Source of the DNA: Squalus acanthias
Taxonomy: Eukaryota
Assembly (NCBI GenBank): GCA_030390025.1
Contig: CM059432.1
Span: 67,644,001-67,708,000, forward strand
DNA: 64,000 nucleotides
Reading direction: 5' to 3'
Position numbers and translations under genes: made by a program. Under the pieces are notes generated by a model. That model did no database searches. It was given only the letters and a program-made list of their open reading frames with translations, and was not told the origin of the DNA. How positions within the stretch are numbered: the stretch's first letter is position 1; each line of letters begins with the position of its first letter. Shown piece after piece: positions 1,292-64,000 of this stretch.

Positions 1292-2963
1292 TGTAAGGGT
1301 TTTTGTGTGTGACAACGCCTGTGGCTCTGTGCTCAGCCTGGGTGCTAGTGCGAGGTTAGGCCTTGTTGCCTGTTTTGGTCTCCAGCCAGTCTGGGAGCAC
1401 TAGACACCTGTGAGTGGTTCGACCCACTCGCCCTTACGGTTCTGACACTGGACTTAGATGCGAGAGCAATAATGGAGAGAAAACTCAGGTAGACCCGGTT
1501 GAATGGTACGAAATGGAAAATCTTTATTGCATATTATTCAAGATTACGAAATACATGTCATAAGCACAGATTAATGACAGGACAATCTTACACGCAGTTA
1601 TGTAACTAATTTTAGGGAAACGAGGAACGAACGACACATCGTAAATGGGGGCACACATTACAGTTATCCTTAAAACTTAAACCCTCCCCTATCAATACCT
1701 GCTCTAAACTAGATTTGTAGGATCGAGACTCATGCTCACCACTCGTGATAACTCGGAGAATTCCGAAAACTCTGCTCGGATGTTTTTAGCGCAGCACCTG
1801 ATCACCCACGTGTTGATCAGGGGTCTCTGTGCCCCACTTGTTTACTCGTTTCTGCTCCGGCTAGCAGGCTGGACCGTCTGCTGTCATGAAGATCTGTGTT
1901 GTCCTCGGAGTTCCGATACGACTCAAAAAATAGTCTTCCTGTGCCCTCGCCCCGATGCGATAAAACTCGAAGAATGGTCTTCCGATGCCAGTTCTGTAAA
2001 ACTCAAAAGATAGTCTTCCTGGGCAAGGAAAGTGTCTATTCGACCTACAGGCGCGGTCGGGGCTTACTGACCGTGGCGATACGTATGGTCGTCTTCTTCT
2101 CTTCTCATCTCATCTCATCTCATCTCATCTCATCTCGGGCCTTCGGTTCCAACACCGTTTACCGACTTCTCGGGATGGTGTGCCCGTTTCAAGGCTTCAC
2201 AGCCCAGTTCCACACAGATCTTCGCGGCAAGCCACGAGGTTGATCCTGGCGGATCAGAAAGTTCAATAGTCTTCTAGCAAGTCGAGCAGCAAGGAGTCAA
2301 GAGACAGCGTCGCAGGCGAAGAGGCAAGAGACAGATGGACGGCTGCACCTTTACAGTTATAGTGCTGCAATTCCTCTTTTCCCCGCCCAATCTTAATGTC
2401 TTTTCTTTTGTTAGGGTTTTGGCGCTCAAACTTCTTGTATAGGGTGATCTCCGTTTAATGGGTTTCGGTGATACTCGTAACTGCCTGAGTACCTGTTAAT
2501 ACTTTTCCCATTGTGTAACCGGTCAGTATTCTCCCTGGAGGGGTTTTGGGGCTTCCAAATGTTTCTGTAACTACCCACAAACGGCTCTCTCATCGTAGAG
2601 TCGTGGGGATTTTGCATATTAATGTCTTTGGATGGGTTATTGATCGTTTGGTACAATAGCCCTTATTCGCACCTGGGAGACCGATTCCAGTATTTCTGTG
2701 TAAAATGCAAACCCATTATGTCTTGTGATTTATCTCAAATGTGCTGAGTCTTGTCCGATCTCGCACAAATGTTTATTGGAACGCCATCTTGTCTGCTTAT
2801 CGAAAAGTCTAGAACGTTCTGCCACGAGGCATGGCGGCCATTTTATAGGCTGCTTGTGTCCACTTTGAAAACCTGACAGCATTCTGCTGAAATAAAGCTG
2901 TTTGAACGAAACTATGTGTTTCCTCCTTATTTATAAAATCGCGATTATATTGCGAATTCTACA
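1292..2963 (-). mobile_element. Solo LTR, family 1 (ERV-like), 1.67 kb
   Basis: TGTA...TACA termini; 4-bp TSD AAGG (1288-1291, 2964-2967); highly similar copies at 33448-35108 and 62111-63777; minus-strand AATAAA at 1523-1528. Confidence 0.9.
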
Positions 2964-18470: not shown

Positions 18471-18524
18471 AATAAAGGGTATCTATCTGAAACATTAGCC
18501 TTTCTTTTCTCTTTTCAGATGTTT

Positions 18525-21500
18525 TTTAATAATTCGTTTATGGGATGTGGGCGTCGCTGGCAAGGCCAGCATTTATTGCCCATCCCTAATTGCCCTTTAG
18601 AAGGTGGTGGTGAGCCGCCTTCTTAAACCGCTGCAGTCCGTGTGGTGAAGGTACTCCCACAGTGCTGTTAGGTAGGGAGTTCCAGGATTTTGACCCAGCG
18701 ACGATGAAGGAATGGCGATATACTTCTAAGTCAGGATGGTGTGTGACTCGGAGGGGAACTTGGAGGTGGTGGTGTTCCCATGCGCCTGCTGCCCTTGTCC
18801 TTCTAGGTGGAAGAGGTCGCGGGTTTGGGAGGTGCTGCCGAAGAAGCCTTGGCGAGTTGCTGCAGTGCATCTTGTAGATGATACACACTGCAGCCACGGT
18901 ACACCGGTGGTGGAGGGAGTGAACGTTTAAGGTGGTAGATGGGGTGCCAATCAAGCGGGCTGCTTTGTCCTGAATAGTGTTGAGTTTCTTGAGTGTTGTT
19001 GGAGCTGCACTCATCCAGGCAAATGGAGAGTATTCCATCACACTCCTTACTTGTGCCTTGTAGATGGTAGAAAGGCTTTGGGGAGTCAGGAGGTGAGACA
19101 CTTGCCGCAGAATACCAAGCCTCTGACCTGCTCTTGTTGCCTCAGTATTTATGTGGCTGGTCCAGTTAAGTTTCTGGTCAATGGTGACCCCCAGGATGTT
19201 GATGGTGGGGGATTCGGCGATGGTAATGCCATTGAATGTCAAGGAACGGTGGTTAGACTCTCGCTTGTTGGAGATAGTCATTGCCTAGCACTTCTGTGGC
19301 GCGAATGTTACCTGCCGCTTATCAGCCGAAGCCTGAACGTCGTCCAGGCCTTGTTACATGCGGGCATGGACTGCTTCATTATCTGAGGAGTTGTAAATGG
19401 CACTGAACACTGTGCAGTCATCAGCGAACATCCCCATTTCCTGCGATATCCTGGGGCTGAGATGATTGAACTTCAACCACCACAACCATCTTCCTTTGTG
19501 TTAGGTATGACTCCAGCAAGTGGAGCGTTTTCCCCCCGATTCCATCGACTTCAGTTTTACTAGGGCTCCTTGATGCCACACTCGGTCAAATGCTGCCTTG
19601 ATGTCAAGAGCAGTCACTCTCACCTCACCTCTGGAATTTAGCTCTTTTGTCCATGTTTGGACCAAGGCTGTAATGAGGTCGGGAGCTGAGTGATCTTGGT
19701 GGAACCCAAACTGGGCATCAGTGAGCAGGTTATTGGTGAGTAAGTGCCGCTTGATAGCACTGTCGATGACACCTTCCATCACTTTGCTGATGATTGAAAG
19801 TAGACTGATGGGGCGGTAATTGGCCGGGTTGGATTTGTCTTGCATTTTGTGGACAGGACATACCTGGGCAGTTTCCACATTGTTGGACAGATGCTAGTGT
19901 TGTAGTTGTACTGGAACAGCTTGGCTAGAGGCGCGGCTAGTTCTGGAGCACAAGTCTTCAGCACGATAGCCGGGATGTTGTCAGGGTCCATAGCCTTTGC
20001 TATATCCAGTGCGCTCAACCATTTCTTGATATCACGTGGAGTGAATGAAATTGGCCGAAGACTGGCTTCTGTGATGGTGGGGACCTCAGGAGGAGGCCGA
20101 TATGGATCATCTAATCGGCACTTCTGGCTAAAGATTGTTGCAAACGCTTCAGCCTTGTCTTTTGCACTCACCTGCTGGGCTCCACCATCATTGAGGATGG
20201 GGATATTCATGGAGCCTCCTCCTCCCATTAGTTGTTTAATGGTCCACCACCATTCACGACTGGATGTGGCAGGACTGCAGAGCTTTGATCTGATCCGTTG
20301 ATTGTGGGATCGCTTAGCCCTGTTTATAGCATGCTGCTTCCGCTTTTAAGCATGCATGTAGTCCTGTGTTGCAGCTTCCCCAGATTGGCACCTCATTTTT
20401 AGGTACGCCTGGTGCTGCTCCTGACATGCTTTTCTACACTGCTTATTGAACCAGAGTTGGTCCCCTGGCTTTTTGGTAATGGTAGAGTGGGCCATGAGGT
20501 TACAGATTGTGGTGGAAAACAATTCTGCTGCTGCTGATGGCCCAGTTTTGAGCTGCTAGATCTGTTCTGAATCTATCCCATTTAGCATGGTAGTAGTGCC
20601 ACACAACATGATGGAGGGAGTCCTCAGTATGAAGACGGGACTTTGTCTCCACTGTGCGGTGGTCACTGCTACCAATGCTGTCATGGACAGATGCATCTGC
20701 GACAGGTAGATTGGTGAGGACGAGGTCAAGTAGGTTTTTTCCTCGTGTTGGTTCTCTCACCGCCTGTCGCAGGCCCAGACTGGCAGCTATGACCTTCAGG
20801 ACTCGGCCAGCTCGGTCAGTAGTGGTGCTACTGAGCCACTCTTGGTGATGGACATTGAAGTCCCCCATCCAGAGTACATTCTGTGCCCTTGCTACTCTCA
20901 GTGCTTTCTTCCAAGTGGTGTTCAACATGGCGGAGTACTGATTCATCAGCTGAGGGAGGGTGGTAAGTGATAATCAACAGGAGGTTTCCTTGCCCATGCT
21001 TGACCTGAAGCCATGAGACTTCATGGGGTCCAGAGCCAATGTTGAGGACTCCCAGGGCCACTCCTTCCTGACCGTATACCACTGTGCCGCCACCCCTGGT
21101 GGGTCTGTCCTACCGGTGGGACAGGACATTCCCAGAGATGGTGATGGAGGAGTTTGGGACATTGGCTTAAAGGTATGATTCTGTGAGTATGACTATGTCA
21201 GGCTGTTGCTTGACTAGTCTGTGGGACAGCTCTCACACTTTTGGCACAAATCCCTAGATGTTAGTAATGAGGACTTTGCAGGGTTGACTGGCCTGGGTGT
21301 GCTGTTGCTGTGTCCATAGCCGGTGCTGAGGTCGATGCGAGGTGGTCCGTCTGGTTTCATTCTTCGTAACGGTTTGTTACAACTGAGTGACTTGCTGGGC
21401 CATTTCAGAGGGCAGTTAAGAGTCAACCACATTGCTGTGGGTCTGGAGTCACATATAGGCCAGACCAGGTAAGGACGGCAGATTTTCTTCCCTAAAGGAC

Positions 21501-23300: not shown

Positions 23301-23967
23301 TCACGTTCTGTAGCGTGACATGAAGCCGAGATCCCGGTTGAGGCCGTCCTCATGGGTGCGGAACTTGGCTATCAGTTTCTGCTCGATGATTTTGCGTTGT
23401 CGTGTGTCTCGAAGGCCGCCTTGGAGAACGCTAACCCACAGATCCGAGGCTGAATGTCCTTGACTGCTGAAGTGTTCCCCGACTGGGAGGTAACAATCCT
23501 GCCTGGCGATTGTTGCGCGGTGTCCGTTCATACGTTGTCTCAGTGTCTGCATGGTCTCGCCGATGTACCATGCCGCGGTGCATTCTTTCCTGCAACGTAT
23601 GAGGTAGACAACGTTGGCCGAGTCACATGAGTATGTACCATGTACCTGGTGGGTAGTGTCCTCACGTGTGATGATGGTATCTGTGTTGATGATCTGGCAT
23701 GTCTTGCAGAGGTTGCCGTGGCAGGGTTGTGTGGTGTCGTGGTCGCTGTTCTCCTGACAGCTGGGTAATTTGCTGCGAACGATGGTACTTTTGAGGTTAG
23801 GCAGCTGCTTGAAGGTGAGTAGTGGAGGCGTGGGGATGGCCTTAGCAAGGTGTTCGTCGTCATCGATGACATGTTGAAGGCTGCGAAGAACATGGCATAG
23901 TTTCTCCGCTCCGGGGAAGTACTGGACGACGTAGGGCACTCTGTTGGTTGTGTCCTGTGTTCGCCTT
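23301..23967 (-). CDS. Penelope GIY-YIG endonuclease, C-terminal part of the ORF
   Basis: CKTC...NVVYLIRC...WYIGET...LRQRMNGHR...VGEHF...E...GLNRD. Confidence 0.9.
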
Positions 23968-24125
23968 CTTAACAGTGACCTTGGATGAAGATCTTGTTTG
24001 GAGAATGCTAATTTTATGGTTGACACCAACTTGAATGGAAAAATTGGATATTCAATTGACAAGAATATTATTCTAAGAATTCTTCATTGAACAAATTAAT
24101 ATAAGACTAAAACATGTAAGATAAT

Positions 24126-29999: not shown

Positions 30000-31455
30000 A
30001 CCTTACCTTCCCTCTTTTACTGACCATCACAACATCCTCTTGGCCACAATGCTGAAATAAAAGCCACCACAAAGCAAACATTCCAATCCAACTTTATCCA
30101 TATGTGCATCCAATATTACATCAAAAAATCAACAAATCTCACTTGTGCATTCCCTTAGTGATTGTCTTGCACATGCCTTTGCCTATCCTAGTGCTCTTAC
30201 GCAGTGCTACCCTAATGGCTGTAGCACGGCTGGTGGAAGGCTGCTGACTTTCAGTGGGGAAGACTGCAGATGGCCTTGCAGGACGACCTCAAAGAGCTGG
30301 TCGCTGGGAGTGTGAAATCGAGTGACGGCGTTCATTCTTCTTCTTCACTCTCCTCTCCTTCTTCTTGATCACCCATTGACTGGGTAGGCTGGATTTCTTG
30401 GGTGTCTGAAATGAGGAAGGCACAAGGTAGGGTCGTGGTGAGGGGAGTCAGGTAAAGCAAGAGCTGCATGCTTACACCATGTGCAGCTTGTAAATCAGAA
30501 GATATTGTGGGATGAAGGGGAAGTGGGATGTGAGAAGGAGGATAACGTATGAGGATACCAGCACCTTGTATTCTTTCAGCCCCACCGCTGGCCAAGGGCT
30601 CAGCCATGCCCCTGCCAAGAATGGCTAGCACTGTCTTCTCCAAGGGGTGAGGTGATGCTAGGAGTGTGAGGTGTCCCTCGTGTTTGCTAGAGATTGTTGG
30701 TAGGTGAGTGAAATGGGTGGGGTCGTGCTTTGAGCAATGTGTGAGGCTAGTGCTGCAGTTGGTAGAAGACGGCTTTGGAAGATACAATCACTGACCTTGA
30801 CCACTTGTCTAAGGCCATGAAACTTCTTTGGGAACTGTGGCCAGGTCCTGGGGGCAACACTGCTGACAGTGACCGCTTCGGCGATCTGGTCCCACATCCT
30901 TCTTTCTGGAGGGCCTCCTGGCCAATGTTCCATCTTAATTTTTTTTGGGTGCGTGGCACCTTTAAGGGGCTGCATGGCCCATTCACAGTTTCGTGCAAAC
31001 TTTACACTGAAAAAGCTGGTCCCGGGCTGCGCAGCCGTGCATCTTATAGGGAACATTGCTCCTTGGCCCCCTGTAGGTAGTGGACCGCACTTCCAGTGTG
31101 GACCCCCTGCACAAAGCTGAAGTGCTGTGTGCGAGACCCTGGGGGCCCTTTCCCTGGCGGCCCTTTCCCTGGCCAGTTGAGCCATTTGGGTTTGTGCTGA
31201 AGCACTTTTACCATTTTTCATCAGCAGAAGGCGCTCACCTTTAAGAGGTGCAGACTATCTTTAAGAGGTGCTGGCTAGCTTTAAGTAAAGCTAGCCTCGC
31301 TCGAACCTCGGGAACTTCAGCCCCCTGTCAGCAACACGTTCAGTGCTAGGCTGTGCACTACAACCATTATAATTAGCAGGCAGCACGAAGTTGACGTACA
31401 GCCTGCGCATCACGGTGCCCGCGCCTGTTTTTCAGCGGTATGGAATTTTACCCCC
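30000..31455 (-). mobile_element. PIF/Harbinger relic (Myb/SANT gene side)
   Basis: ORF 30658-31221 (ARERAPR...WDQIAEAV...RTWPQFPKKFHGL); TIR-like ggaattttaccccc at 31455. Confidence 0.7.
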
Positions 31456-31577: not shown

Positions 31578-34500
31578 GGGAGCGATTTTCCCTGGATATT
31601 TTAAGCACTAAAGAGTCGCCAAGATCGCCAAGACAGGGTCTTGATCTGCAAAACCTGGTTAGCACGCCTTTAGCACAAGACACCATCTTGGTAAAGGAGT
31701 TGAAGCGGCACTAGGAACGGCCGCCCCGAGGATCATTAAGGCTCTGTTGCCAATTAAAGTGGCTTCTAATGCTCATTAAAGAGGCTGTGCGCCATTTTGC
31801 TGGCTAACGCTGCAATTAATGACCTCTCCTAACAGTGACCAGCTGAATAGGAGTAAAAGAGTCGTTGCTGAACATTGCAAGCGCGAATTAAAGCCATACT
31901 TAGCTTTCACTGTTCATTTACTGCTGGGGATCGACTGGCCACACTGCGTTTGAAGAGAACTTTTGATACACATCGGGAGACTTTCTGGGGCACTTTGTCA
32001 AGTTCTCTGAGGAATTCACCTAAAGAGAGTGAGTGCTGTGCTACTCTACCTTAGTGGAGACCTTATAAGAGTCACCAGGAGAAAGTGAGAGTTTGGTCAT
32101 GGGGATCTTGATAGAGGTCCCTCTTGGTCTGGAGGAGGAATGGGAGGAGGAATGAGAGGAGGAGATGAGGCCATGCAGAACAGCACCAGCTGCTGAAGGA
32201 GAGAGGGAGAGGAGAGACAGGAGGGTGAAGAGGGCTCCAGATTTGTGGTGACTTGCTGCATGCTCCACAATCTGGCGATCATGAGACCAGCCAATACCAC
32301 CAGCAATTGTGCCAGAGGGTCAAGCTCGGGAACCACAAGAGAAGGAGGAGGAAGAGGAGGAGGTTAAGAAGGAGGAGAAATACAAGGGGGACCAGAGGGA
32401 GCACCAGAGGATTCCAGCAGCCCACACCTAGGAGGGACGCTGGTCGCCATCTAATTGAAGACCGCTTTTAAGAGATGTCCTCCACCAACAGACTTCGGAG
32501 CACTATTGCCACATGCCTTACCTTCCGCAACTGAGGATCCATCAAGAAGTCCACCATCTGCACTCAATCCTTTCAACCCCTTCCCCATGAACAACACAAT
32601 AAAAAAGACCATCAATTCCAGCACTACACAATTACCATAATCAAACTTTATCTAGAGCAAACATAAACAATGAAAACATGACACTGCTAACATCACTTAC
32701 AAATTTTAAACTATTCAACCTGGTGCTTACCCTTAATAACTATCCTATAAGTGCTTTTGCCTACGCTGGTGATTTTACGAAGTGCAACCCAAGTTGCAGC
32801 AGCACGCAAGGTAGATGGCTGCTGAGATTCTGAAGAGGGCAGTTCAGGTGTCCTCCTGAGAAGCCTGAGAGAGGCTGTGGGCTGTGATGGCCCTGCCTCA
32901 GACTGCACCATCTCAGCATGGGTTTGAGCAGTCTGGGGCACCTAGCTGACAGGCAACTGCAAGGGCAATGGTGGAGTGCCGGGGGAGGGCGCAGCAATGC
33001 TGCCATCCAGAGAGAGGCCAGTAGGTTCCTGCTCCATGATTCATACGCTACTACCTCGGGGCGTCTGTTCAGCCCGCCCACTGATCTGCTGGAGGACAGA
33101 TCTCAGCATGCTGGGACACTCTGCAAGGCCCTTTCAACCGAGGAGCCCAGAGCCACCATGGCAGCTGCCTGAGCTTCTATTGCAGCACTTTGCTGTTCCA
33201 TGGATGATGCTGGTAGTGCAATGGAAGCTGTTTGGGCTTCCATTGCAGCACTTTATCGTTCCATGAAAGCTGTTTGGCATTTCCAGGTGCATGCGACTGT
33301 GATGATCTGTGTTCTACCCTAGCATCTAAGTTACCCGTGGTGCCAGTCCTGAGCTGGCGTCTGTTACAGTGGTAGCAATTGACTCAGTGCCTTCTTCCTC
33401 GCTCTCCTCCACCACTTCCTCTGGGGGGCAAGATGGCTCTTCCTCCTTGTAGAATTCGCAAAATTATCGCGATTTTATAAAATAAGAAGGAGACATAAAG
33501 TTTCGTACAAACAGCTTTATTTCAGCAGAATGCTGTCAGGTTTTCAAAGCGGACACAAACAGCCTGTAAAATGGCCGCCACGCCTTGTGGCAGAACGTTC
33601 TATACTTTCAATGAGCAGACAAGATGGCGTTCCAATAAACATTTGTGCAAGATCGTACAGGACTCAGCACATTTGAGATAATTGACAAGACATGATGGGT
33701 TTGCATTTTATACATAAATACTGGAATCGGTCTCCCAGGTGCGAATAAGGGCTATTGTACCGAGCGATCAAGAACCCATCCAAAGACATTAATATGCAAA
33801 ATCCCCACGACTCTACGATGAAAGAGCCGTTTGCGGGTAGTTACAGAAAGCATTTGGAAGCCCCAAAACCCTTCCAGGGAGACTACTAGCCGGTTCCACA
33901 ATGGGAGAAGTATTAACGGGTACTCAGACAGTTACAAGTATCACCGAAACCCATTAAAAACGGAGATCACCCTATACAAGAAGTTTGAGCGCCAAAAACC
34001 TGACAAAAGATAGACATTAAGATTGGGCGGGAAAAGAGGAATTACAGCACTATAACTGTAAGGTACAACCGTCCATCTGTCTCTTGCCTCTCTTGCCTCC
34101 TGCTACTCTTGCTGCTGACTGCTGTCTCTGCTTCTTTTTGCACTTGCTGCTTTGACTCGCTGGAAGACTGTTGAACTTTTATTCTCTTGCCTGACGGCTC
34201 TGGACTCTGATCCGCTAGGATCAACCTCGTGGCTTGCCGCGAAGATCTGTGTAGAACTGGGCTGTGAGGCCTTGAAACGGGCACACCATCCCGAGAAGTC
34301 GGTAAACGGTGTTGGAACCGAAGCCCCGAGATGAGATGAGATGAGATGAGAAGAGAAGAAGACAACAATATGTATCGCCACTGTCAGTAAGCCCCGACCG
34401 CGCCTGTAGGTCGAATAAACACTTTCCTTGCCCAGGAAGACCATTCTTTGAGTTTTACAAACTGGTGAGGGCACAGGAAGACTCTTTTTCGAGTAGTATC

Positions 34501-35750
34501 GGAACTCCGAGGACAACACAGATCTTCATGACAGCAGACGGTCCAGCCTGCTAGCCGGAGCAGAAACGAGTAAACAAGTGGGGTACAGAGACCCCTGATC
34601 AACACGTGGGTAGTCAGGCGCTGCGGTAAAAACATCCGAGCAGAGTTTCGGAATTCTCCGAGTTATCACGAGTGGTGAGCATGAGTCTCGATCCTACAAA
34701 TCTAGTTTAGGACAGGTATTGATAGGGGAGGGTTTAAGTTTTAAGGATAATTGTAATGTGTGCCCCCTTTTACGATGTGTCATGCGCTCCTCGTTTCCCT
34801 AAGATTAGTTACATAACTGTGTGTAAGATTGTACTGTCATTAATCTGTGCTTATGACATGTATCTCGTAATCTTGAATAATATGCAATAAAGATTTTCCA
34901 TTTCGCACTATTCAACCGGGTCTACCTGAGTTTTCTCTGCATTATTGCTCTCGCACCTAAGTCCAGTGTCAGAACCGTAAGGGCGAGTGGGTCGAACCAC
35001 TCACAGGTGTCTAGTGTTACCAGGCTGGCTGGAGACCAGAACAGGCAACAAGGCCTAACCTCGCACTAGCACCCAGGCTAAGCACAGAGCTGCAGGTCAC
35101 CCCTTACATCCGCTTCCAGATCCTCCGGGGGGTGAGGTGGATCTTGCTCCTGGGAGCTTGCAATGATCAAGCTAGATGGGTTAGGGTGCAGGGTGTGTGG
35201 CCACTATAGGACGATGTGTGTGATGAGATCATATGGAGCGTGTGAGTGCGGATAGGTTTGGGGATTAGGGAGCAGGAATGGTTGTGGATATATAAGGAAG
35301 CTGGAGTGGCCACATACCTCGAGGCAATATGTCCCCTGCTCTGCCTGTGGCCATGGTGCATGCTGCTCCCCTCCCGATCTCCGCCAGCACTGCCTCCTCA
35401 AGGGGAGTGATCTCGTGCAGTTTTGCCTCCCCTCCCCCGGTCAGGTCCTGCTGGCACCTGTTATGTGCTACCTTGTCCTGGAAGAGAAAGAGTGGCGATT
35501 GTGAATGAGTGTTGGCATGCGATGCCTCACATGATTTATAGAATCATAGAAATTTACGGCATAGAAGGAGGCCATTCAACCCATCGTGTCTGTGCCGGAA
35601 AGCCAGCTGAAGTGCTGTGAGATGTGTCTGAGGTGTAAGAGGTGCCTGTGAAAGATGCAATAGTGCAGAGTGTGTGAATGTTAGTGTGCAGTTAGATGGT
35701 GGATGAAATGTGTTGAAGTTGTTATGTTGGTGGTGGTGGTGCAGTTATTG
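31578..35750. mobile_element. Degenerate PIF/Harbinger element interrupted by LTR 33448-35108
   Basis: Transposase N-terminal remnant on + (about 32100-32560); convergent Myb-gene remnants on -, similar to 30100-30750 and 59000-59700. Confidence 0.55.
33448..35108 (+). mobile_element. Solo LTR, family 1 copy 2
   Basis: Reverse complement of 1292-2963; TSD TCCT/TCCG; ATTGG/GCGGGAAA at about 34022-34035, TATAA at 34051, AATAAA at 34886. Confidence 0.9.
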
Positions 35751-36324: not shown

Positions 36325-39300
36325 GGGAACAGTAGAGTAGTGGTAATGTCACTGGGCTAGTAATCCAGAGGCCTGGATTAATGATGCAGAGATGTGAGTT
36401 CAATTTAAATTCAGTTAATTAAACAAATCTGGAATAATTACTAGTATCAGGCTCACTAATGTCCTTTAGGAAGGAAATCTGCTGTCCTTACCTGGTCTGG
36501 CCTATATGTGACTCCAAGACCCACAGCAATGTGGTTGACTCTTAACTGCCCTCTGAAATGGCCTAGCAAGCCACTCAGTTGTAACCGGACGGACCACCCA
36601 ACATCGACCTCGGCACGGCACACACGGCCCAGTTGACCCTGCAAAGTCCTCCTCACCAACATCTGGGGACTTGTGCCAAAATTGGGAGAGTTGTCCCACA
36701 GAATCATACCTTTCAGCCAATGTTCCAAAATCCTCCATACAGTCGGGAAGGAGTGGTCCTGGGAGTTCTCAACATTGACTCATTTCTCCAGGGCAAGGAA
36801 ACCTCCTACCACCTATGGCCCGGTGAATCAGTACTCCTCCAGGTTGAACACCACTTGGAAGAAGCACTGAGTGTAGCAAGGGCACAGAATGTACTCTGGG
36901 TGGGGCACTTCAATGTCCATCACCAAGAGTGGCTGGGTAGTGCCACTACTGGCCGAGTCCTGAAGGACATAACTGCCAGTCTGGGCCTGTAATAGGTGGT
37001 GAGAGAACCAACACGAGGGGAAAAACCTACTTGATCTTGTCCTCACCAACCTACCTGTCGCAGATGCATCTGTCCATGACAGTATTGGTAGCAGTGACCA
37101 CCGCACAGTCATTGTGGAGACGAAGTCCCATCTTCAAACTGAGGACACCCCCCATCGTGTTGTGTGGTAGCACCACCGTGCTAAATGGGATAGATTCAGA
37201 ACAGATCTAACAGCTCAAAACTGGAAATCCATGAGGTGCTGTGGGCCATCAGCAGCAGCAGATTTGTATTCCACCACAATCTGTAACGTCATGGCCCGAC
37301 ATATCCCTCACTCTACCATTACCATCAAGCCAGGGGACCAACCCTGGTTCAATAAGGAGTGTAGAAGAGCATGCCAGGAGCAGCACCAGGCATAGCTAAA
37401 AATGAAGTGCCAACCTGGGGAAGCTGCAACACAGGACTACATGCATGGTAAAAAGCGGAAGCAGCATGCTATAGACAGGGCTAAGCGATCCCACAATCAA
37501 CGGATCAGATCAAAGCTCTGCAGTCCTGCCACATCCAGTCGTGAATGGTGGTGGACCATTAAACAACTAACGGGAGGAGGAAGCTCCATGAATATCCCCA
37601 TCTTCAATGATGGTAGAGCCCAGCATGTGAGTGCAAAAGACAAGGTTGAAGTATTTGTATCCATCTTCAGCCAGAAGTGCCGAGTGGATGATCCATATCG
37701 GCCTACTCCTGAGGTCCCCACCATCACAGAAGCCAGTATTCAGCCAATTCGATTCACTCCACATATCAAGAAACGGCTCAGCGCACTGGATACAGCAAAG
37801 GCTATGGGCCACGACAACATCCCAGCAATCGTGCTAAAGACTTCTGCTCCAGAACTAGCCGCGCCTCTGGCCAAGCTGTTCCAGTACAGCTATAACACTG
37901 GCATCTATCCGACAATGTGGAAAACTGCTCAGGTATGTCCTGTCCACAAAAAGCAGGATAAATCCAACCCGGCCAATTACCGCCCCATCAGTCTACTCTC
38001 AATCACTAGCAGAGTGATGGAAGGTGTCATCGACAGTGCTATCAAGTGGCACTTACTCACCAATAACCTGCTCACTGATGCCCAGTTTGGGTTCCGCCAA
38101 GACCACTCGGCTCCTGACCTCATTACAGCCTTGGTCCAAACATGGACAAAGGATCTGAATTCCAGAGGTGAGGTGAGACTGACTGCCCTTGACATCAAGG
38201 CAGCATTTGACCGAGTGTGGCATCAAGGAGCCCTAGTAAAACTGAAGTCAATGGGAATCGGGGGGGGGGTGGGAAATTCACAACTGGCTGGAGTCATACC
38301 TAACACAAAGGAAGATGGTTGTGGTGGTTGGAGATCGATCATCACAGCCCCAGGACATCGCTGCAGGAGTTCCTCAGGGCAGTGTCCTAGGCCCAACCAT
38401 CTTCTGCTGCTTCATCAATGACCTTCCCTCAACATAAGGTAAAAAATGGGGATGTTTGCTGATGACTGCACAGTGTTCAGCACCATTCACAACTCCTCAG
38501 ATAATGAAGCAGTCCATGCCCGCATGCAACAAGACCTGGACGACGTTCAAACTTGGGCTGATAAGTGGCAGGTAACATTTGCGCCACAGAAGTGCCAGGC
38601 AATGACTATCTCCAACAAGCGAGAGTCTGACCACCTCCCCTTGACATTCAACGGCATTACCATCACTGAATCCCCCACCATCAACATCCTGGGGGTCACC
38701 ATTGACCAGAAACTTAACTGGACCAGCCACATAAATACTGTGGCAACAAGAGCAGGTCAGAGGCTAGGTATTCTGCGGCAAGTGTCTCACCTCCTGACTC
38801 CCCAAAGCCTTCCCACCATCTACAAGGCATAAGTAAGGAGTGTGATGGAATACTCTCCACTTGCCTGTTGAGTGCAGCTGCAACAACACTCAAGAAGCTC
38901 GACATCATCCAGGAGAAAGCAGCCCATTTGATTGGCACCCCATCCACCACCTTAAACGTTCACTCCACTACCGGCGTACCGTGGCTGCAGTGTGTACCAT
39001 CTACAAGATGCACTGCAGCAACTCGCCAAGGCTTCTTCGGCAGCACCTCCCAAAACCGCGACCTCTTCCACCGAGAAGGACAAGGTCAGCAGGCGCATGG
39101 GAACACCACCACCTCCAAGTTCCCCTCCAAGTCACACACCATCCTGACTTAGAAGTATATCGCCGATCCTTCATCGTCGCTGTGTCAAAATCCTAGAACT
39201 CCCTCCTTAACAGCACTGTGGGAGTACCTTCACCACACGGACTGCAGCGGTTCAAGAAGGCAGTTCACCACCACCTTCTCAAGGGCAACTAGGGATGGGC

Positions 39301-39345
39301 AACAAATGCTGGCCTTGCCTGCGACGCCCAGATCCCATAAGCAAT
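36325..39345 (+). mobile_element. CR1-group LINE with tRNA/SINE-like 5' head, copy 2
   Basis: Starts GGGAACAGTAGAGTAGTGG; APE and RT ORF pieces at 36633-39196 including FADD; same tail as 18525. Confidence 0.88.
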
Positions 39346-39629
39346 TTTTTTTAAAGTACCGTGTCGTGCCAACGCGCATGATGCTGCGGCACGTAGCACC
39401 GCGATATTGGGCTGGAGCGCCCCAAGAGGGAGGGGGAGCACTTCCAGTAGCACCCCGCCTCCTGCTTGGGGCGCTACCATTGAATTTCGGGCGTGGGGGC
39501 GCTAACTTTTTCGGGGCGCGAAGTTAGCGCCCCAAAGAGAGTGCGACCCAATTTTTGCCCCCATGGGTTTGAGATTAACTATTTTTTCTTTACACCCACC
39601 CCCCAGAAATCAAGAAACAGCTGACTGCA

Positions 39630-43432: not shown

Positions 43433-46400
43433 ACATAAGAACATAAGAAATAGGAGCAGGAGTAGACCAATCGGCCCCTCGAGCCTGCTCCGCCATTCAA
43501 TGAGATCATGGCTGATCTGATCCAACCTCAACTCTAAAGAACACAAGAAGTAGGAGCAGGACCAGGCCACTCGGCCCCTGGGCCCGCTCCGCCACCCACA
43601 AGGCCTTGACCGATCCGAACTCAAACTCATGTCCAATTTCCAGCCCGCTCCCCGTAACCCCTGATTCCCTTTACTTCTAGGAAATGGTCTATTTCTGTTT
43701 TAAATTTATTTGATGAAGTAGCTTCCACAGCTTCCTGGGGTAGCAAATTCCACAGACCCACTACCCTCTGAGTGAAAAAGTTTCTCCTCATCTCAGTTTT
43801 GAAAGAGGAGCCCCTTATTCTAAGATTATGTCCCTTAGTTCTAGTTTCACCCATCATTGGGAACATCCTCACCACGTCCACCCGATCAAGCCCCTTCACA
43901 ATCTTGTATGTTTCAATAAGATCGCCTCTCATTCTTCTGAACTCCAATGAGTAGAGTCCCAATCTACTCAACCTCTCCTCGTATGTCCACCCCCTCATCC
44001 CCGGAATTAACCGAGTGAACCTTCTTTGTACTGCCTCGAGAGCAAGTATGTCTTTTCTGAAGTATGGACACCAAAACTGTATGCAGTACTCCAGGTGCGG
44101 TCTCACCAATACCCTATACAACTGCAGCAATACCTCCCTGTTTTTATATTCTATCCCCCTAGTAATAAAAGCCAACATTCCATTGGCTTTCTTGATCACC
44201 TGCTGCACCTGCATACTAACTGTTTGATTTTCTTGCACCAAGACCCCCAGATCCCTTTGTACTGCAGTACTTTCCAGTTTCTCGCCATTAAGATAATAAC
44301 CTGCTCTCTGATTTTTCCTGCCAAAGTGCATAACCTCACATTTTCCAATATTGTATTGCATCTGCCAAATCTCTGCCCACTCACCCAGCCTGTCTATATC
44401 CCCTTGTAGGTTTTTTATGTCCTCCTCACTCTCTACTTTCCCTCCCATCTTTGTATCATCTGCAAACTTTGATATGTTACACTCGGTCCCCTCCTCCAAA
44501 TCGTTAATATAGATTGTAAAGAGTTGGGGACCCAGCACCGACCCCTGCGGAACACCACTGGCTACTGGTTGCCAGTCCAAGAATGAACCATTTATCCCAA
44601 CTCTCTGCTTCCTGTTAGATAACCAATCCTCCACCCATGCCAGAATATTACCCCCAATCCAGTGATTTTTTATCTTGAGTAATAATCTGTTATGTGGCAC
44701 CTTGTCGAATGCCTTCTGGAAGTCTAAATACACTACATCCACTGGTTCCCCTTTATCCACCCTGTACGTTATGTCCTCAAAGAACTCGAGCAAATTTGTC
44801 AGACATGACTTCCCCTTCATAAAGCCATGCTGACTTTGTCCTATTAAATTATGTTTATCTAAATGTTCCGTTACTGTCTCCTTAATAATAGACTCCAAAA
44901 TTTTACCCACCACAGATGTTAGGCTAACTGGTCTATAATTTCCAGCCTTCTGCCTACAACCCTTTTTAAATAAGGGTGTTACATTAGCAGTTTTCCAATC
45001 TGCCGGGACCTTTGCTGAGTTCAGGGAGTTTTGGAAAATTATTACCAAAGCATCCACAATTCCTACTGCCACTTCCCTCAAGACCCTAGGATGTAAGCCA
45101 TCAGGTCCAGGGGATTTATCCGCCTTGAGTCCCATTATTTTACTGAGTACCAATTCCTTAGTGATTTTAATCGTATTTAGCTCCTCCCCCACTAGAGCCC
45201 CCTGTTTGTCCAGTGTTGGGATATTCTTAGTGTCCTCTACCGTAAAGACTGAAACAAAATATTTGTTCAGCATTTTTGCCATCTCCATGTTTCCCACCAT
45301 TAATTTCCCGGTCTCATCCTTTAAGGGACCTACGTTTGCCTTAACCACCCTTTTTCTTTTTATATAACTATAGAAACTCTTGCTATCTGTTTTTATATTT
45401 TTTGCTAATTTATTTTCATAGTCTATTTTCCCTTTCTTAATCAATCCTTTAGTTACTTTTTGTTGTCTTTTGAAGATTTCCCAATCTTCTATCCTCCCAC
45501 TAACTTTGGCTACCTTATATGTCCGTGTTTTTAGTTGGATACTTTCTTTAATTTCTTTACTTAGCCATGGATGGCTGTCATTTCTTTTACACCCTTTTTT
45601 CCTCAGTGGAATATATTTATTTTGAAAGTTGTAAAATAACTCCTTGAATGAACACCACTGCTCATATACCGTCTTACCCTTTAATCTATTTTCCCAGTCC
45701 ACTTTAATCAATTCTGCTCTCATGCCATCATAGTCTCCTTTATTCAAGCTCAGTATGCTTGTTTGAGAACCAACCTTCTCACCCTCTAATTGGATATGGA
45801 ATTCAACCATGTTATGGTCACTCATTCCAAGGGGATCCTTAACTAGGACATTATTAATTAATCCAGACTCATTACACAGTACCAGGTCCAAGGTTGCTTG
45901 CCCCCTTGTAGGATCAGTTACATACTGTTCAAGAAATCCATCCCTAAGACACTCAATAAACTCTTCCTCAAGGCTGCCCTGCCCAATTTGATTTGTCCAG
46001 TTAATATGATAGTTAAAATCCCCCATAATTATAGCTGTTCCCTTATTACATGCCCCAACTATTTCCTGATTAATACTTCTTCCAACAGAGTTGCAACTAT
46101 TAGGAGGCCTATATACTACGCCCACCAGTGTTTTTTCCCCTTATTATTCCTTATCTCTACCCAAACTGTTTCATTATCCTGATCTTTTGACCCAATATCA
46201 TTTCTCTGTATTACAGTGATTCCTTCCTTTATTAACATAGCCACCCCCCCCCCCTCTCCCCTTCCTTCCTGCCTGTCCTTCCTGATTGTTAAATACCCTG
46301 GCATATTTAATTCCCAGACGTTGTCACCCTGCAGCCATGTTTCTGTAATGGCCACAAGATCATACCATACATAGTTATTTGTGCTGTTAACTCGTCAATT

Positions 46401-49800: not shown

Positions 49801-52005
49801 CTGGCTATGTATTTAATGTATGCCTCTTTCCTTACCCTCAATTGTTTCCTTATGTTTTTATTCATCCATGGAGTCTCATTAGTGTTTAGTTTGTTCTTTC
49901 CTTTTAGAAGAATATATTTTTCCTGCATTCTGTTGAACACCGTTTTAAATGTTTCCCGTTGTCATTCTACATCTTCGTTTGCCAATTTTGTTGCCCATTT
50001 TATCTTCCAAAGTTCTATTCTCAGCCCCTCAAAATCAGCTTTTCTCCAATCTATTAACTTGTTTTTTGTCATTCTTATGTCCTTCTCTATTGTCATCTTA
50101 AAGTGTACTTTATTAAGGTCACTATTGCCCATATGTTCCCCTAAATTTACTTATCTTATCTGCTCTGGCTCATTCCCCATAACTAGATCCAATAATGAAT
50201 CCTCCCTTGTTGGGCTTTTTACAAATTGAGTTAGAAAGGAGTCCTGTACACATTGTAGGAACTCCATTCCCTTATCCCCTTTACCTACCTCTTCTGTCCA
50301 ATTAATATCGGGGTAGTTGAAATCCACCATGATTATTCTAAGTTTTTTACTCATTTCTCTAATTTGTCTGTATAGGTCTTCCTCCACCTCCCTTCCACTA
50401 TTAGGTGGTCTGTAGACTACGCCTATTAGTGTGATTGATCCTTTATTATCTTTTATCTCTATCCATATGGATTCTATTTTTGTCTTGCTGATATCTACAT
50501 CCCTTTTTTCTACTGCCATTATGTTATCCCGAATAAGTACAGCTACTCCAACCCCCCTTTTCCCTCTCTATCTTTTCTAAATATGTTATACCCTGCAATG
50601 TTTAACTCCCAATCCTGATGTTTCTGTAGCCATGTCTCCTGATCTCTGCTTCTATGCCAATTTGCACATGGCTCAGGCAATAACCCAGAGATTATTATTT
50701 CCGCGCTCCTGCTTTTTAATTTAGAGCCTATCTCTCGAAACTCTTTCAGCATGACCTCCTCCCTGTTCCTACCTATGTCGTTTGTTCCAATATGGACCAC
50801 GACAACTGGATTTACCCCCTCCCTTTCCAAGTTCCTCTCCAGCTGCCGTGAGATATCCCTTACCCTGGCACTTGGTAGGCAACACACCCTTCGGGATTCT
50901 CGTTCATGGCTGCAGAGGATGCTATCTATCCCCCTAATTATAGAGTCCCCTATCACTACCACATTTCTAATCTGCTCCTCCCCCCCCCTTGGACAGCCTT
51001 CTGAGCCATGGTGCTTTGGTCTGCATTGTGGCTATCCTCCCTGCAGTCTTTCTCCTTTTCCTCACAGGTAGCAAGTACATCGTACCTGTTGGGCAGGACC
51101 AGTGTCTGCGGAACCTCCTTCTCAACCTCTTGTAAATCCCCACTACCCGGCTCCCTAACAGTCACACCCTCCCCTTTCTGAACCTGTGCTTTCCTCTGGG
51201 GTGTGACTGTATTCTGGATAAAACTGTCCAGAAATTCCTCCCCCTCCCTTATGTGTCGGAGTGTCTCCAACTCACACTCCAGCTCAATGACTCTGAGCCG
51301 GAGAGATTCGAGATGCAGACATCTCCTGCAGACGTGTTTGCATGGGACAGTCACACCACCCACCCACAGACTCCCACATACTGCAGTCCAGACGCACAAC
51401 CTGCCCTGCCATATCTTAGCCTTATTTTATTCATTTAATTAGTTAAAGTCTTTATTCAACAAATATTTATAGTTATATTAAATAGTTTATCTAGCTAAGC
51501 TATAAATTTAGTACAGTTATAGTTTCCCGTACCTAGTTTAAACCACTATCCTAGGTTTAAAGCAGTGGCCCCAGCACTGACCCTTGGGGAACACCACTGT
51601 CTACCATCCTCCAGTTGGACTCGCTGTTTCCTGTCCTTAAAAAAAATTCTTATCCAAGCTGACACTGACCCACCTATTCCATGAGCCTCAATTTTGTTAA
51701 CCAGCTTTTTAGGTGGTACTTTGTCAAACACTTTTTTAAAATCCATATCGACAACATCCTCTGCATTCCCTTCATCAACCTTCTCTGTTACTTCATCAAA
51801 AAATTCAATTAGATTAGTCAAACACGATCTGCCTTTTATAAATCCGTGCTGGCTCTCCTTAATTAACTTAAACCTCTCCAAGTGCCTGTTAAATTTTTCC
51901 CTGATTATTGTTTCTAAAACCTTACCCACCACTGATGTTAAACTGACCAGCCTATAGTTACTAGGATTGTCCTTACACCCTTTCTTGAACAAGGGTGTCA
52001 TTTTT
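46873..52005 (-). mobile_element. CR1 fragment split by nested CR1 (parts 46873-47837 and 51558-52005)
   Basis: RT ORFs 46948-47683 and 51546-52031 resume across the insertion. Confidence 0.85.
47838..51557 (-). mobile_element. Near full-length CR1 (ORF1 zinc finger/coiled coil + SGNH esterase; ORF2 frameshifted)
   Basis: TSD TAAAGCAGTGG (47827-47837, 51558-51568); ORF1 VIGDSIIRG...VVHIGTND; ORF2 pieces. Confidence 0.92.
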
Positions 52006-57309: not shown

Positions 57310-60300
57310 GGGGGAAAAATTCGGTACCTTAGTGCCTCTAGTTTGCACCAGCAGATGGCGCTATTGGGGCGCTAGAGCATTATTGGCGCGGTGAGGTGAA
57401 TCCAATGCTGCACGCCAAATCCTGCACCTCCGCAGCGCCGCTGCTAACAGTTATCGCTGGGAACATCAATGCCAGGTGGATCGAGACCTCAGTGAGTGTG
57501 CAACACTCACTGACCGCCCGATTTGCGAAATTGATTGTCGCCACCTACCTTAGCACCTGGAGGAAACAGCGACAGGGAGAGCTGGCATGAAGCAACAGGA
57601 AGCCGGCTCCAGGGATGTTATTTAAAGGGATCATCAGTAATGAGTCGCAGCTGTAGGTTAGTGGAATTTCAGTGCTTTTTTGTCAGCTTCACATAGTGCA
57701 AAAGTCTCATTCCGTAATTTCAATGTTATTTAGTATCAGGAGTGTTTTGGCAACTAAAAAGTAGCTACATTTATTCTTAAAAAAATCAAACTGCTACACT
57801 TGGTGACATTAATGGGGGCTGTACTGACATTCTGTGACCTCCCGGATGCAACGATGAATGACGAACTACGAGATGTTAGCTATGTCTCCTGTTGCAGACT
57901 GGAAGGATCCGCTTTCAAAGAAATTAAGGGCGACAGTGACCTTGACTGCGACTGAGAGAGCTGTGATCACCCTGATCTGAGGCTGGAGGTCTGGTTGCAG
58001 GAGGTGGCAGAGTTCTGTGACCACCTCCTTGGTGAAGCGGAGCCTTCTAATGCACTGCTCCTCGCTTAATTGGAGGTAGGAGAAGTGCTCTCGGAATACC
58101 CTTGGAGGATAAGGCCTCCTGTTGAAAGCCCTGATGGCCCTCCTCCTCCCTCTGGCCACATGTTCCAGTCTTTCTCGCTGCCTCTGCTGTAGATCTTGGA
58201 GGGTGAGGTTGACTGTCAGTGTAGCCCCCATTAATATCACCAAGTGTAACAGTAACAAGAGGCACTAAGGGATTGCACAAGGGTGAATAGGTAATATTTT
58301 TGTTGTAAATATGTGTTCACTGATTTTTGATAAAATTTATTAATTCAGTTTGGATTCTTTTGTGGCGTCTCTCATTTCAGCTTTGCACTGTGATATGACC
58401 TGCAACAGGGATGGAGTGATGGGGATGTGGTGAGCAACAGGGATCTGTGGTTTAATTTATTGGAATCGCAGTCTGATGAGATGGTCACGGACCGCCCTCC
58501 CAGAAGGCCGATTGAGTGGCTGCCTCCTCCCTCGCTCCTTCTCCTCGTCCTCCTCATCCTCCTCATTGTCATCCTCATCTTTCTCTTCCTCCTCATCCTC
58601 CTCTCCTCCTCTCCCTCTTCCTCCTCCTGAGGTGGTCCTGCAATCCCTGGTGGCAAGGGCTGGACTCTCATGATGGCCAAGTTGTGGAGCATGCAGCAGA
58701 CCACCACGAAATGGGACACCCGCTCACACCCTGCTCAGCCGAGTACTGGAGGGCTCCTCCCGAGCAGTCAAGGCAGCAGAACCATTGCTTCAGCAGGCCG
58801 ATGGTCTGCTCGATGATGTTCCTGGTGGCAGCATGACTGTCATTATATGAGTGCTGGGCAGGAGTGTTGGGGTTGTGGAGGGGAGTCATGAGCCAGGTGG
58901 AGAGCGGATAGCCCTTGTCTCCAACCAGCCAGCTGCCAGCTTGACGTGGTGGCTGTAAGCGTGCTGGCACAGCGGTCTGGCTGCAGCCCACTCATCCCCG
59001 GTGCCTCACCCGGTGCAGATCCCACTACTATACTAGCCTCTAAAGAACGCGTAGTGCCAGTATCTGAGCTGGTGCCTGCAGGTGAGAGATGCAGTGACGC
59101 GGTGTGTTCTTCGTCCTCCTCTTCTCCCGCATCGCCCTCTAAGGTGCCCTCAGGGACAGGCTGCTCAGGTGCTTGCTGATTATCTGAAAGCATAAAGGCA
59201 CAAGAGTCAGGTTAAGGTGAGAGGAGGGGGACAGGAAGAGAGAAATGCATGCATGCAACATGATTAGCTGGAAAGTGCGAAAGGCTTGTGGGGTGAGGGA
59301 GAAGTGGGATGTGAGAAGAAGGAGTAGGGCTGAACATACCGTTGTTGTCCCTAAGGGGGTCAACGTCGCCGGTGGCCACAGTGCCCACCACCTGGCGCCC
59401 AATAATCTGCAGCACTCGATTTTCCAGCACAGACAGTGGTTCGGTGTCAGCTTGTCCACCGCCTGTGCGCTCCTGCTCCCTCCTGTTGTGAGCCACCTTG
59501 GCCTGAAAGAGAAAGGAAAGTGTGTGGAGCAATGTGTTTGGGTGATGTGCCTGCCATAGTTAAATAGCTGTCATTGTGTACAAAATGTGAGATGTGGGTG
59601 TGAGTGTTGGTAGGTAGAGATTGTTGGTGGGTGAGTGCTGGGGGTGTGGTGCTTTGGGCAGTGTATGAAGATTGTGATACAGACGGTGGTATGTAGCATT
59701 TGTTGAAGCATTGACTCACCCTGACCACCCGAATGTGGTTGTTAAATTTCTTCCTGCACTGTGTGTGGGTCCTGGGGACCACAGTGCTGCCCTCCACATG
59801 CTGCACTACCTCCCTCCACATGGTGCGGAAGACTTGCGGTTGGGGCCTCCTGCCACTTGCTGGTTTAAAGCCTGGTACTAATTCTCCAACTTTTCTAATG
59901 ATACCGCCCATTCCTGGGCTATAATGAATTTCCAGCTCATTTTTTATCACAATTCAGTATGTTCGTTTTGCATTCAGAGCAACTTAATGAGGTGTGAACT
60001 AGTGAGTAAGCACAGTTGTTTCTGGCTGAAACAAACGGAGCGCTTCAGACACTATGGAGGAGATATTCGATATAGCCCCGGTGGGGGCGCTAAAACTTTA
60101 AGGGGTAAAAATTCAGTTGGTTGCGCCTCCCGTTAGCGCCTTAAGAGGGCGCTAATGGGGCGCAAAGCCGCTAACGCCCGGGCGCAGTGATGTTTGCGCC
60201 GCTCGGGAACTTAACTTGACATTGTGCGGCGGCGCTAAAACTTACCGCTGCGACCACCTGCGCGCGCAGATTGTGACGTCATTCCATGGTGCAACGCCCT

Positions 60301-61732: not shown

Positions 61733-61879
61733 TATAAGTGGCAACTATGAAATTGACGTTAATGTAAATAGATAATGGTTATCACTTTTTGGCCGATATA
61801 AATGACTGCCCATTTTAAGCATGGACGTTTGAGCAGCAGCTGGCATCACTACAGTGCATCTGTGAGACTGAGAGCTACG

Positions 61880-62110
61880 TGGATAGCACATTTCAAGAGG
61901 TGGTCACCCCGCAGCGTAAGAGGTGTACAGGCAGAAAGGGAATGGGTGACTACCAGACAGACAAGGAGCACCAGGCAGGTAGTGCAGGAGTCCCCTGAGT
62001 GCATCTCACTCTCTAACCAAATGGCACCACAGGTGGCTCAGCTGTACATGGAGGGAGGAGGAAGATCGGGAATGCAATAGTGATAGGGGATTCAATAGTT
62101 AGGGGAACAG
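61880..62110 (+). mobile_element. CR1 ORF1 fragment, target of the proviral insertion
   Basis: gtgataggggattcaatagttagggga encodes VIGDSIVRG esterase motif directly before the LTR. Confidence 0.75.
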
Positions 62111-63777
62111 TGTAAGGGTTTCTGACCCGTGTGGCTCTGTGCTCAGCCTGGGTGCTAGTGCGAGGTTAGGCCTTGTTGCCTGTTCTGGTCTCCAGCCAGT
62201 CTGGGAGCACTAGACACCTGTGAGTGGTTCGACCCACTCGCCCTTACGGTTCTGACACTGGACTTAGGTGCGAGAGCAATAATGGAGAGAAAAACTCAGG
62301 TAGACCCGGTTGAATGGTGCGAAATGGAAAATCTTTATTGCATATTATTCAAGATTATGAACTACATGTCATAAGCACAGATTAATGACAGTACAATCTT
62401 ACACGCAGTTATGTAACTAATTTCAGGGAAACGAGGAACGAACGACACATCGTAAATGGGGGCACACATTACAGTTATCCTTAAAACTTAAACCCTCCCC
62501 TATCAATACCTGCTCTAAACTAGATTTGTAGGATCGAGACTCATGCTCACCACTCGTGATAACTCGGAGAATTCCGAAAACTCTGATCGGATGTTTTCCC
62601 CGCAGCACCTGATCACCCACGTGTTGATCAGGGGTCTCTGTACCCCACTTGTTTACTCGTTTCTGCTCCGGCTAGCAGGCTGGACCGTCTGCTGTCATGA
62701 AGATCTGTGTTGTCCTCGGAGTTCCGACACGACTCGAAAAATAGTCTTCCTGTGCCCTCGCACTGATTCGATAAAACTCAAAGAATAGTCTTCCGATGCC
62801 AGTTCTGTAGAACTCAAAGATGGTCTTCCTGGGCAAGGAAAGTGTCTATTCGACCTACAGGCACGGTCGGGGCTTACTGACCGTGGCGATACGTATGGTC
62901 GTCTTCTTCTCTTCTCATCTCATCTCATCTCATCTCATCTCATCTCGTCTCGGGCCTTCGGTTCCAACACCGTTTACCGACTTCTCGGGATGGTGTGCCC
63001 GTTTCAAAGCTTCACAGCCCAGTTCCACACAGATCTTCGCGGCAAGCCACGAGGCTGATCCTGGCGGATCGTAAAGTTCAACAGTCTTTAAAAGCTGCAA
63101 GAGACAGAGACACGAGGCAAGCGGCAAGGAGTCGAAAGGATAAGAGAAAAATGGACGGTTGCAGCTTACAGTTATAGTGCGAACACTCTTCTTTTTCCCG
63201 CCCAACCTTAATGTCTTTTCTTTTGTTAGGGTTTTGGCGCTCAAATTTCTTGTATAGGGTGATCTCCGTTTAATGGGTTTCGGGGATACTCGTAACTGTC
63301 TGAGTACCTGTTAATACTTTTCCAATGTGTAACCGGTCGGTATTCTCCCTGAGGGGTTTTGGGGCTTCCAAATGTTTTCTGTAACTACCCGCAAACGGCT
63401 CTCTCATCGTAGAGTCGTGGGGATTTTGCATATTAATGTCTTTGGATGGGTTCTTGATCGCTTGGTACAATAGCCCTTATTCGCACCTGGGAGACCGATT
63501 CCAGTATTTATGTGTATACTGCAAACCCATAATGTCTCGTGTATTATCTCAAATGTGCTGAGTCTTGATCGATCTCGCACAAATGTTTATTGGAACGCCA
63601 TCTTGTCTGCTTATCGAAAAGTCTAGAATGTTCTGCCACGAGGCGTGGCGGCCATTTTTACAGGCTGCTTGTGTCCACTTTGAAAACCTGACAGCATTCT
63701 GCTGAAATAAAACTGTTTGAACGAAACTATGTGTTTTCTCCTTATTTATAAAATCGCGATATATTGCGAATTCTACA
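62111..63777 (-). mobile_element. 3' LTR (family 1) of a provirus extending beyond the window
   Basis: Same LTR as 1292-2963; no TSD; preceded on the minus strand by PPT-like CAGGAGGG-AC. Confidence 0.85.
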
Positions 63778-64000
63778 GTCCCTCCTGTTGATGCGAATAA
63801 CTCCGCTTATCGTATCAAAAAATATTGTGGTGAGCAATATTATCTCGATTTCTCCAGATCCAGAAAAATAATCCCCATAACTTAAACTATCTAGGGTCTT
63901 TGCGTCGTCCTTATTTCCCAAAAAATTACATTCTTATAACACCGCAGGCATTATTTGCCTTTAAACTTACACCACTTGTTTTCCTTCCAGGCGTAACCAG
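63778..64000 (-). mobile_element. Proviral internal 3' region with polypurine tract
   Basis: Minus strand ...caacaggagggac|TGTAGAATTC; sequence does not resume the CR1 ORF1 flank. Confidence 0.75.

Follow-up and report, generated by a model that had tools for sequence, protein, structure and literature searches.

Retrovirus-like ends and a putatively long R region in a many-copy LTR family of the shark Squalus acanthias

The described element closest to the one reported here is in our judgement the lineage I endogenous retrovirus (ERV) of the elephant shark (CmiERV, scaffold 2), which is related to snakehead retrovirus (SnRV) according to an excerpt of PMC4422223. The deep SnRV-related branch, clade Huo, has hosts in every major lineage of vertebrates (PMC6001957, in excerpt), and shark ERVs as such are already known. 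Retroviral families can be compared by the length of the target-site duplication (TSD): in the sections of PMC4299795 that list these, 4 bp is the rule for ERV1 (Table 1) and 5 bp for ERV3 and ERV4, the unclassified ERVs outside classes I and II include the 4-bp TSD groups CrocERV37 and CrocERV39 (supplement), and the four rows compared for unclassified deep lineages give TSDs of 4 in two and 5 in two. A further character is the junction at which the polypurine tract (PPT) meets the LTR, which reads GGGTG in every foamy virus and every teleost foamy-like ERV considered in the excerpted text of PMC5210030, where this junction is tied to an integrase that trims one end only.

We compared with these systems a 64,000-nucleotide stretch of S. 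acanthias DNA (contig CM059432.1; hereafter the window), which contains the end of a putative provirus and two solo LTRs of the same family. Such a find is ordinary in a repeat-rich vertebrate window, and the main results are that in one specific test the element does not behave as a foamy virus, and that the R region of the family seems unusually long.

Three LTR copies and their target sites

The three LTR copies are all full-length within the window and together make up 7.8% of it. Copy 1 (1292..2963, minus strand, 1,672 bp) and copy 2 (33448..35108, plus strand, 1,661 bp) are solo LTRs, and copy 3 (62111..63777, minus strand, 1,667 bp) lies near the right edge. All have TG..CA termini (copy 3 reads TGTAA..CTACA on the plus strand), and the pairwise identities are 92.7, 94.5 and 91.5% (91.5–94.5% for copy 3 against the two solo copies), or 93.6, 96.2 and 92.9% outside a hypervariable 100-nt block which is described below. 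An earlier sequence-only reading of this DNA had noted three similar copies in 64 kb, and the measured lengths and identities agree with it.

Copy 1 is flanked by AAGG/AAGG, a perfect 4-bp TSD (4/4) on which k = 3 or 5–8 does not improve, and copy 2 by TCCT/TCCG, which matches imperfectly at 3/4 (k = 7 gives 5/7); the host frames to the left and right of copy 2 are offset in a way that fits a 4-nt (or 7-nt) duplication and not a 5-nt one. The 4-bp TSDs claimed earlier for the family therefore hold in full for copy 1 and in three of four positions for copy 2. This is the TSD length of class I, epsilon-like ERVs (ERV1), and together with the LTR length of 1.66–1.67 kb it is also shared, non-exclusively, with foamy viruses (one perfect and one near-perfect TSD, n = 2 solo copies). 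The 5-bp TSD of ERV3 (ERV-L) and ERV4 was not found, as the 5-mer flanks of the two solo copies match at 2/5 and 1/5.

Copy 3 has no TSD within the window, as had been claimed, with ACAG on the left, GTCC on the right and 0/4 positions matching. The ACAG (62107..62110, plus strand) is the expected half of a 4-bp TSD whose partner would lie beyond the far LTR, outside the window. The DNA to its left is the 5' portion of a CR1-type LINE ORF1 (61831..62110, plus strand), cut where the esterase-like motif begins and recognised by its similarity to a second CR1 ORF1 at ~50543–51426 (tblastx E 7e-10, blastn 74%), which itself has a Pfam Lipase_GDSL_2 match (E 4.6e-7, below the curated cut-off). The proposed insertion into a CR1 ORF1 after ACAG is borne out by this flank.

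The three LTR copies differ by 5.5–8.5% (K2P distances of 0.057–0.091), and at an assumed catshark substitution rate of 0.5e-9 (PMC10699275, in excerpt) this would place their common ancestor 57–91 million years ago on the assumption that every difference arose by neutral drift in the host. It should be noted that this range is an upper bound because part of the divergence is surely viral, and that divergence between separate insertions differs from insertion age. The CpG observed/expected ratio of the copies is 0.75–0.89 vs 0.45 for the window, and this limited depletion suggests that the copies are younger. Recent activity of the family, which had been claimed earlier, is thus plausible and finds agreement in the CpG content, but not in the divergence between copies. 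We also observed that copy 2 carries 69 private substitutions vs 17 in copy 1 and 33 in copy 3. A-to-G hyperediting of copy 2 was considered and rejected, since the 15 A>G changes vs 4 T>C (p 0.04, uncorrected) are accompanied by 16 G>A and are unclustered.

Other repeated elements are common in the window. Copy 2 lies within an acidic frame (33300–33447 and 35109–35600) that belongs to a repeated element whose flank is similar to several other places in the window; we take this frame to be probably a Harbinger-type Myb/SANT gene, and it has no Pfam match at E 0.01. Weak Myb/SANT matches below the curated cut-offs were seen in frames at 10914–11441, 30661–31254 and 59450–59953 (all minus strand), presumably consistent with Harbinger-type DNA transposons. 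A CR1-type LINE at 43630–46140 (minus strand) has an 837-codon stop-free endonuclease and reverse transcriptase (RT) frame (Pfam RVT_1 E 3.9e-30, Exo_endo_phos_2 E 2.1e-10), and a 260-codon frame at 23304–24083 (minus strand) has no Pfam match and what seems to be the GIY-YIG nuclease motif of Penelope-like elements. Finally, two copies of a non-LTR retrotransposon (18523–20489 and 37309–39355) are ~93% identical, in opposite orientation and 17–20 kb apart.

The polypurine tract and internal DNA beside copy 3

On the minus strand copy 3 directly adjoins a PPT, AGGAGGG (63780..63786), the putative plus-strand primer, from which the TG of the LTR is separated by a two-nucleotide AC spacer (63778..63779). 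The junction AGGAGGG-AC-TG is located at 63786–63776, in agreement with the sequence-only reading, and it differs from AGGAGAGGG-TG; RRRRGGG at the same spacing occurs at only 0.25% of window sites. The reverse orientation of copy 3 was rejected because the plus strand lacks a TGG primer site after the LTR.

The 223 bp between copy 3 and the edge of the window, which include the apparently non-coding 3' end of the internal region (63787..64000, minus strand), have 3–5 stops in each minus frame and occur once in the window, and in all four public runs compared they are multi-copy and polymorphic. At position 63945, for example, there are 21 variant contigs in run X1 and 16 in run X3, and two contigs of run X12, which is labelled as a second organism, span 63793–63988 with 5 and 8 gaps. 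Summed depth in X1 is ~3e5 for the LTR and ~3e4 for the internal part, with 8–12 for contigs of the locus-specific flank, and we read these sums only as 'many copies' and not as a copy number. Among the contigs listed, none is shown spanning the LTR/internal junction, and none gives sequence past position 64000.

Searches with the internal 223 bp turned up no relative. Two of the three minus frames had no match when compared with longer proteins, a 63-codon open stretch had 0 matches among 1.84 billion representatives and none in Atlas, the best of the six frames against Pfam reached only E 0.13, and no env tail was recognisable in these protein and Pfam searches; three Rfam matches were all well under the gathering score. 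Exact-pattern scans for relatives of the element found 0 in viral contigs and 0 in genome contigs, and the 2 matches in metagenome contigs had nothing beyond one 21-mer in common. A degenerate form of the junction motif was found in 13 viral contigs, of which 0/13 carry an RT motif of the LTR type or resemble the LTR.

We also folded seven stretches, two of which gave z below -2. A hairpin at ~63814–63849 (minus strand), ~30–65 nt before the PPT, has z -3.2 (1/200 shuffles were as stable), and another at the very start of U3 (63746–63777, minus strand) has z -2.3, while a small hairpin directly before the PPT, taken by itself, does not reach significance (z -1.35).

Because many variant contigs cover the 223 bp in 4/4 runs, we regard this DNA as belonging to the family and not as unique flank. 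Its behaviour is that expected of a non-coding 3' end shared by the many copies of an element, which makes a 3' LTR the best reading of copy 3. The region 62111–64000 is therefore almost certainly, judging from its sequence, the 3' LTR, PPT and last ~220 bp of a putative provirus of a many-copy LTR family that crosses the right edge of the window. This upholds the earlier proposal of a provirus edge with a 1.67-kb LTR.

Class of the element as judged from its ends

The TG..CA termini, short TSDs and a PPT abutting the 3' LTR are those of LTR retroelements (Ortervirales, with a DDE integrase). The primer-binding site (PBS), gag, pol, env and second LTR would lie outside the window and class is therefore judged from the ends of the element alone. 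On this basis we favour, tentatively and at a little short of even chances, an ERV of the deep SnRV-related branch (clade Huo). The 3' end of the SnRV-like CmiERV reads ATCAAGGTGAGG-AC-TGTTAGAATT and that of copy 3 ATCAACAGGAGGG-AC-TGTAGAATT (PMC4422223 supplement, compared by eye); the two share a PPT ending in GG-AC-TG, a non-coding gap before the PPT, the motif TGATAC..ATCAA just upstream of it (also by eye), the U3 start TGT(T)AGAATT and a cartilaginous-fish host. The likeness is short, unscored and seen by eye, and the junction is non-diagnostic, as lokiretrovirus consensuses also read GGGG-AC-TGT in four places (PMC7947760, in excerpt). Against this reading, the CmiERV lineage I LTR is by eye only about half as long as the LTR here, with no further likeness seen; 4-bp TSDs are the ERV1 rule, with ERV3 and ERV4 giving 5 in the excerpted PMC4299795, and just one TSD here is perfect. 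Lineage I also differs in comprising few old copies and not a many-copy family.

If the element is such an ERV, its ends suggest an orthoretrovirus-like mode of integration. A DDE integrase would make host cuts staggered by 4 nt, going by the TSDs of the solo copies, and the junction suggests that plus-strand DNA would be primed at AGGAGGG, leaving AC outside the terminal TG to be trimmed by integrase, so that both ends would be processed and not one end only as in the foamy viruses. The two TSD-flanked single LTRs would then be products of LTR–LTR recombination.

An epsilon-like ERV of class I (clade Mu, ERV1 of Repbase) is an unlikely alternative with several points of agreement, including the 4-bp TSD (the ERV1 rule in Table 1 of PMC4299795, of which we cite an excerpt), the affiliation of two of the three CmiERV lineages with this group in the excerpted PMC4422223, and a two-base spacer after the PPT in the epsilon-like CmiERV as well. 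However, this CmiERV (lineage II) ends in GGGAGG-AG-TGTGG, with AG as the spacer and another U3 start, where the SnRV-like copy matches the element here in spacer, U3 start and upstream motif (PMC4422223 sequence supplement, in which a 3' LTR is present for two of the three elements). The lineage II LTR is also much shorter than ours and its env adjoins the PPT, ending by eye within tens of bases of it, whereas no env tail is recognisable in the 223 bp here.

A Gypsy (Metaviridae) LTR retrotransposon, and thus no retrovirus, appears improbable, and the element is very probably a retrovirus rather than Gypsy. A cassette of GC box and TATA and a length of 1.67 kb are commoner in retroviral LTRs than in those of vertebrate Gypsy elements, which we count against Gypsy, and the junction is like published shark and fish retroviral ends. 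It remains in favour of Gypsy that no env was seen in the window, that the LTRs of animal Metaviridae agree with retroviral ones in their termini and AATAAA motifs (PMC3601003, in excerpt), and that LTR elements give TSDs of 4–6 bp (PMC12440569).

The spuma-like assignment suggested as a possibility by the sequence-only reading is not supported by the PPT:LTR border, where copy 3 reads GGG-AC-TG in place of the foamy GGGTG, and no accessory frame was seen open from the internal region into U3. The element does share with foamy viruses and teleost foamy-like ERVs an LTR well over 1 kb, a 4-nt TSD and a short G-ending PPT, but long LTRs and 4-nt TSDs, which that reading had listed as foamy traits while noting 4-bp TSDs in class I ERVs and Gypsy elements too, are common to foamy viruses 'although not exclusively' (PMC5210030, in the excerpted text). 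LTR length is in any case weak evidence of class, because lamprey ERVs are annotated with LTRs of 1.4–4.2 kb (PMC10699275 supplement, in part) and the solo LTRs of zebrafish BHIKHARI are longer than 1 kb. A foamy-like ERV is accordingly quite improbable, and is not put lower because the GGGTG rule was drawn from foamy viruses and teleost elements and may not reach sharks, in which foamy-like elements are known (PMC5512871, PMC10699275).

We likewise give little credence to a lokiretrovirus or a non-autonomous BHIKHARI-like derivative. The published consensuses contain GGGG-AC-TGT junctions like the one here, one of them with a ~300 nt non-coding gap from env to PPT (PMC7947760 supplement, in part), and BHIKHARI has many solo LTRs of >1 kb, a length implied for Bik-1 by a length filter (PMC12067270, in excerpt). 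Membership nonetheless rests on RT and an F-like env, neither of which is visible here, and the discovery screen gave positives in 0/3 chondrichthyan genomes (PMC7947760 supplement). Finally, that copy 3 is a solo LTR with a replaced or deleted right flank and not a provirus edge can be set aside as very improbable, for although only 223 bp of internal DNA are visible and no listed contig bridges its junction with the LTR, a PPT-like tract lies at the exact position expected (against the 0.25% background) and the 223 bp have multi-copy coverage.

LTR anatomy and the putative R region

Within the LTR, the position of the promoter motifs suggests a putative U3 of ~630 nt (63148..63777, minus strand; 35% A) whose promoter cassette, a GC box TGGGCGGG followed by TATAA, is at 63171..63205 (minus strand) and is found in 3/3 copies at LTR position 575–606, with TATAA at ~601; an inverted CCAAT overlaps the GC box in copies 1 and 2. 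A poly(A) signal, AATAAA, is also conserved in 3/3 copies at LTR position ~1439 (62334..62339 in copy 3, minus strand). Transcription would begin ~30 nt past the GC box/TATA cassette near LTR position 600 and the transcript would end after the AATAAA at 1439, and these motif positions predict a putative R of ~830 nt (62318..63147, minus strand) and a putative U5 of ~200 nt (62111..62317, minus strand). The GC box/TATA pair occurred in 4/5000 shuffles and a looser GGGCGG pair in 51/5000, the pattern having been picked post hoc. It should be noted that this division is not unique, because a second TATAA (position 28) and a second AATAAA (187) are equally conserved in 3/3 copies.

The excerpted PMC3601003 quotes R lengths of 11 nt for MMTV, 21 for RSV, 70 for gammaretroviral ERVs and 150 for lentiviruses, and for class III ERVs a TATA-to-AATAAA distance of 180 nt; it also describes an A-poor stretch from TATA to AATAAA in retroviral LTRs, and warns that the borders of LTR regions require RNA data. 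In copy 3 the 100 nt directly after TATA (63048–63147) are A-poor (14% A) and pyrimidine-rich, and between copies this block is 68–80% identical vs 91–98% elsewhere in the LTR. One reading of this hypervariability is that the block may be a subfamily-specific or recombined leader; few contigs of relatives cover it in the public runs. The putative R also contains a (GAGAT)n array (62908–62951), and its structure does not exceed that of shuffled sequences (z -1.1). We also note that a Met-initiated frame of 41 codons, antisense to U3 (63436–63558, plus strand), is open in 3/3 copies and has no Pfam match; at such divergence its conservation may be due to chance.

We consider an R of ~830 nt, several times the 11–180 nt quoted for studied retroviruses, in a many-copy shark family of a deep branch a serious possibility, though somewhat more apt to be wrong than right on these motif positions. 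At the far end of this reading the element would also be a chondrichthyan lokiretrovirus, which is highly unlikely. A literature search outside Repbase, Dfam and most subscription papers found no description of an ERV from sharks whose LTRs measure 1.67 kb or whose R is ~830 nt long, and the excerpted texts of PMC8672886, PMC5753468, PMC12006353, PMC10435555 and PMC2717909 contain nothing decisive for the class of the LTR family.

Should R be ~830 nt long, the standard retroviral scheme would have two consequences. The minus-strand strong-stop DNA would exceed 1 kb, and the poly(A) site of the 5' LTR would lie at too great a distance from the cap for proximity to silence it, so that active suppression would be needed. 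The family would then be a natural case in which to consider strong-stop copying over more than 1 kb and the silencing of an upstream poly(A) site. Each solo LTR could also make a capped and polyadenylated RNA of ~0.8 kb as a self-contained unit, and the many solo LTRs of the family would thus supply the host genome with a large number of units that combine promoter and terminator.
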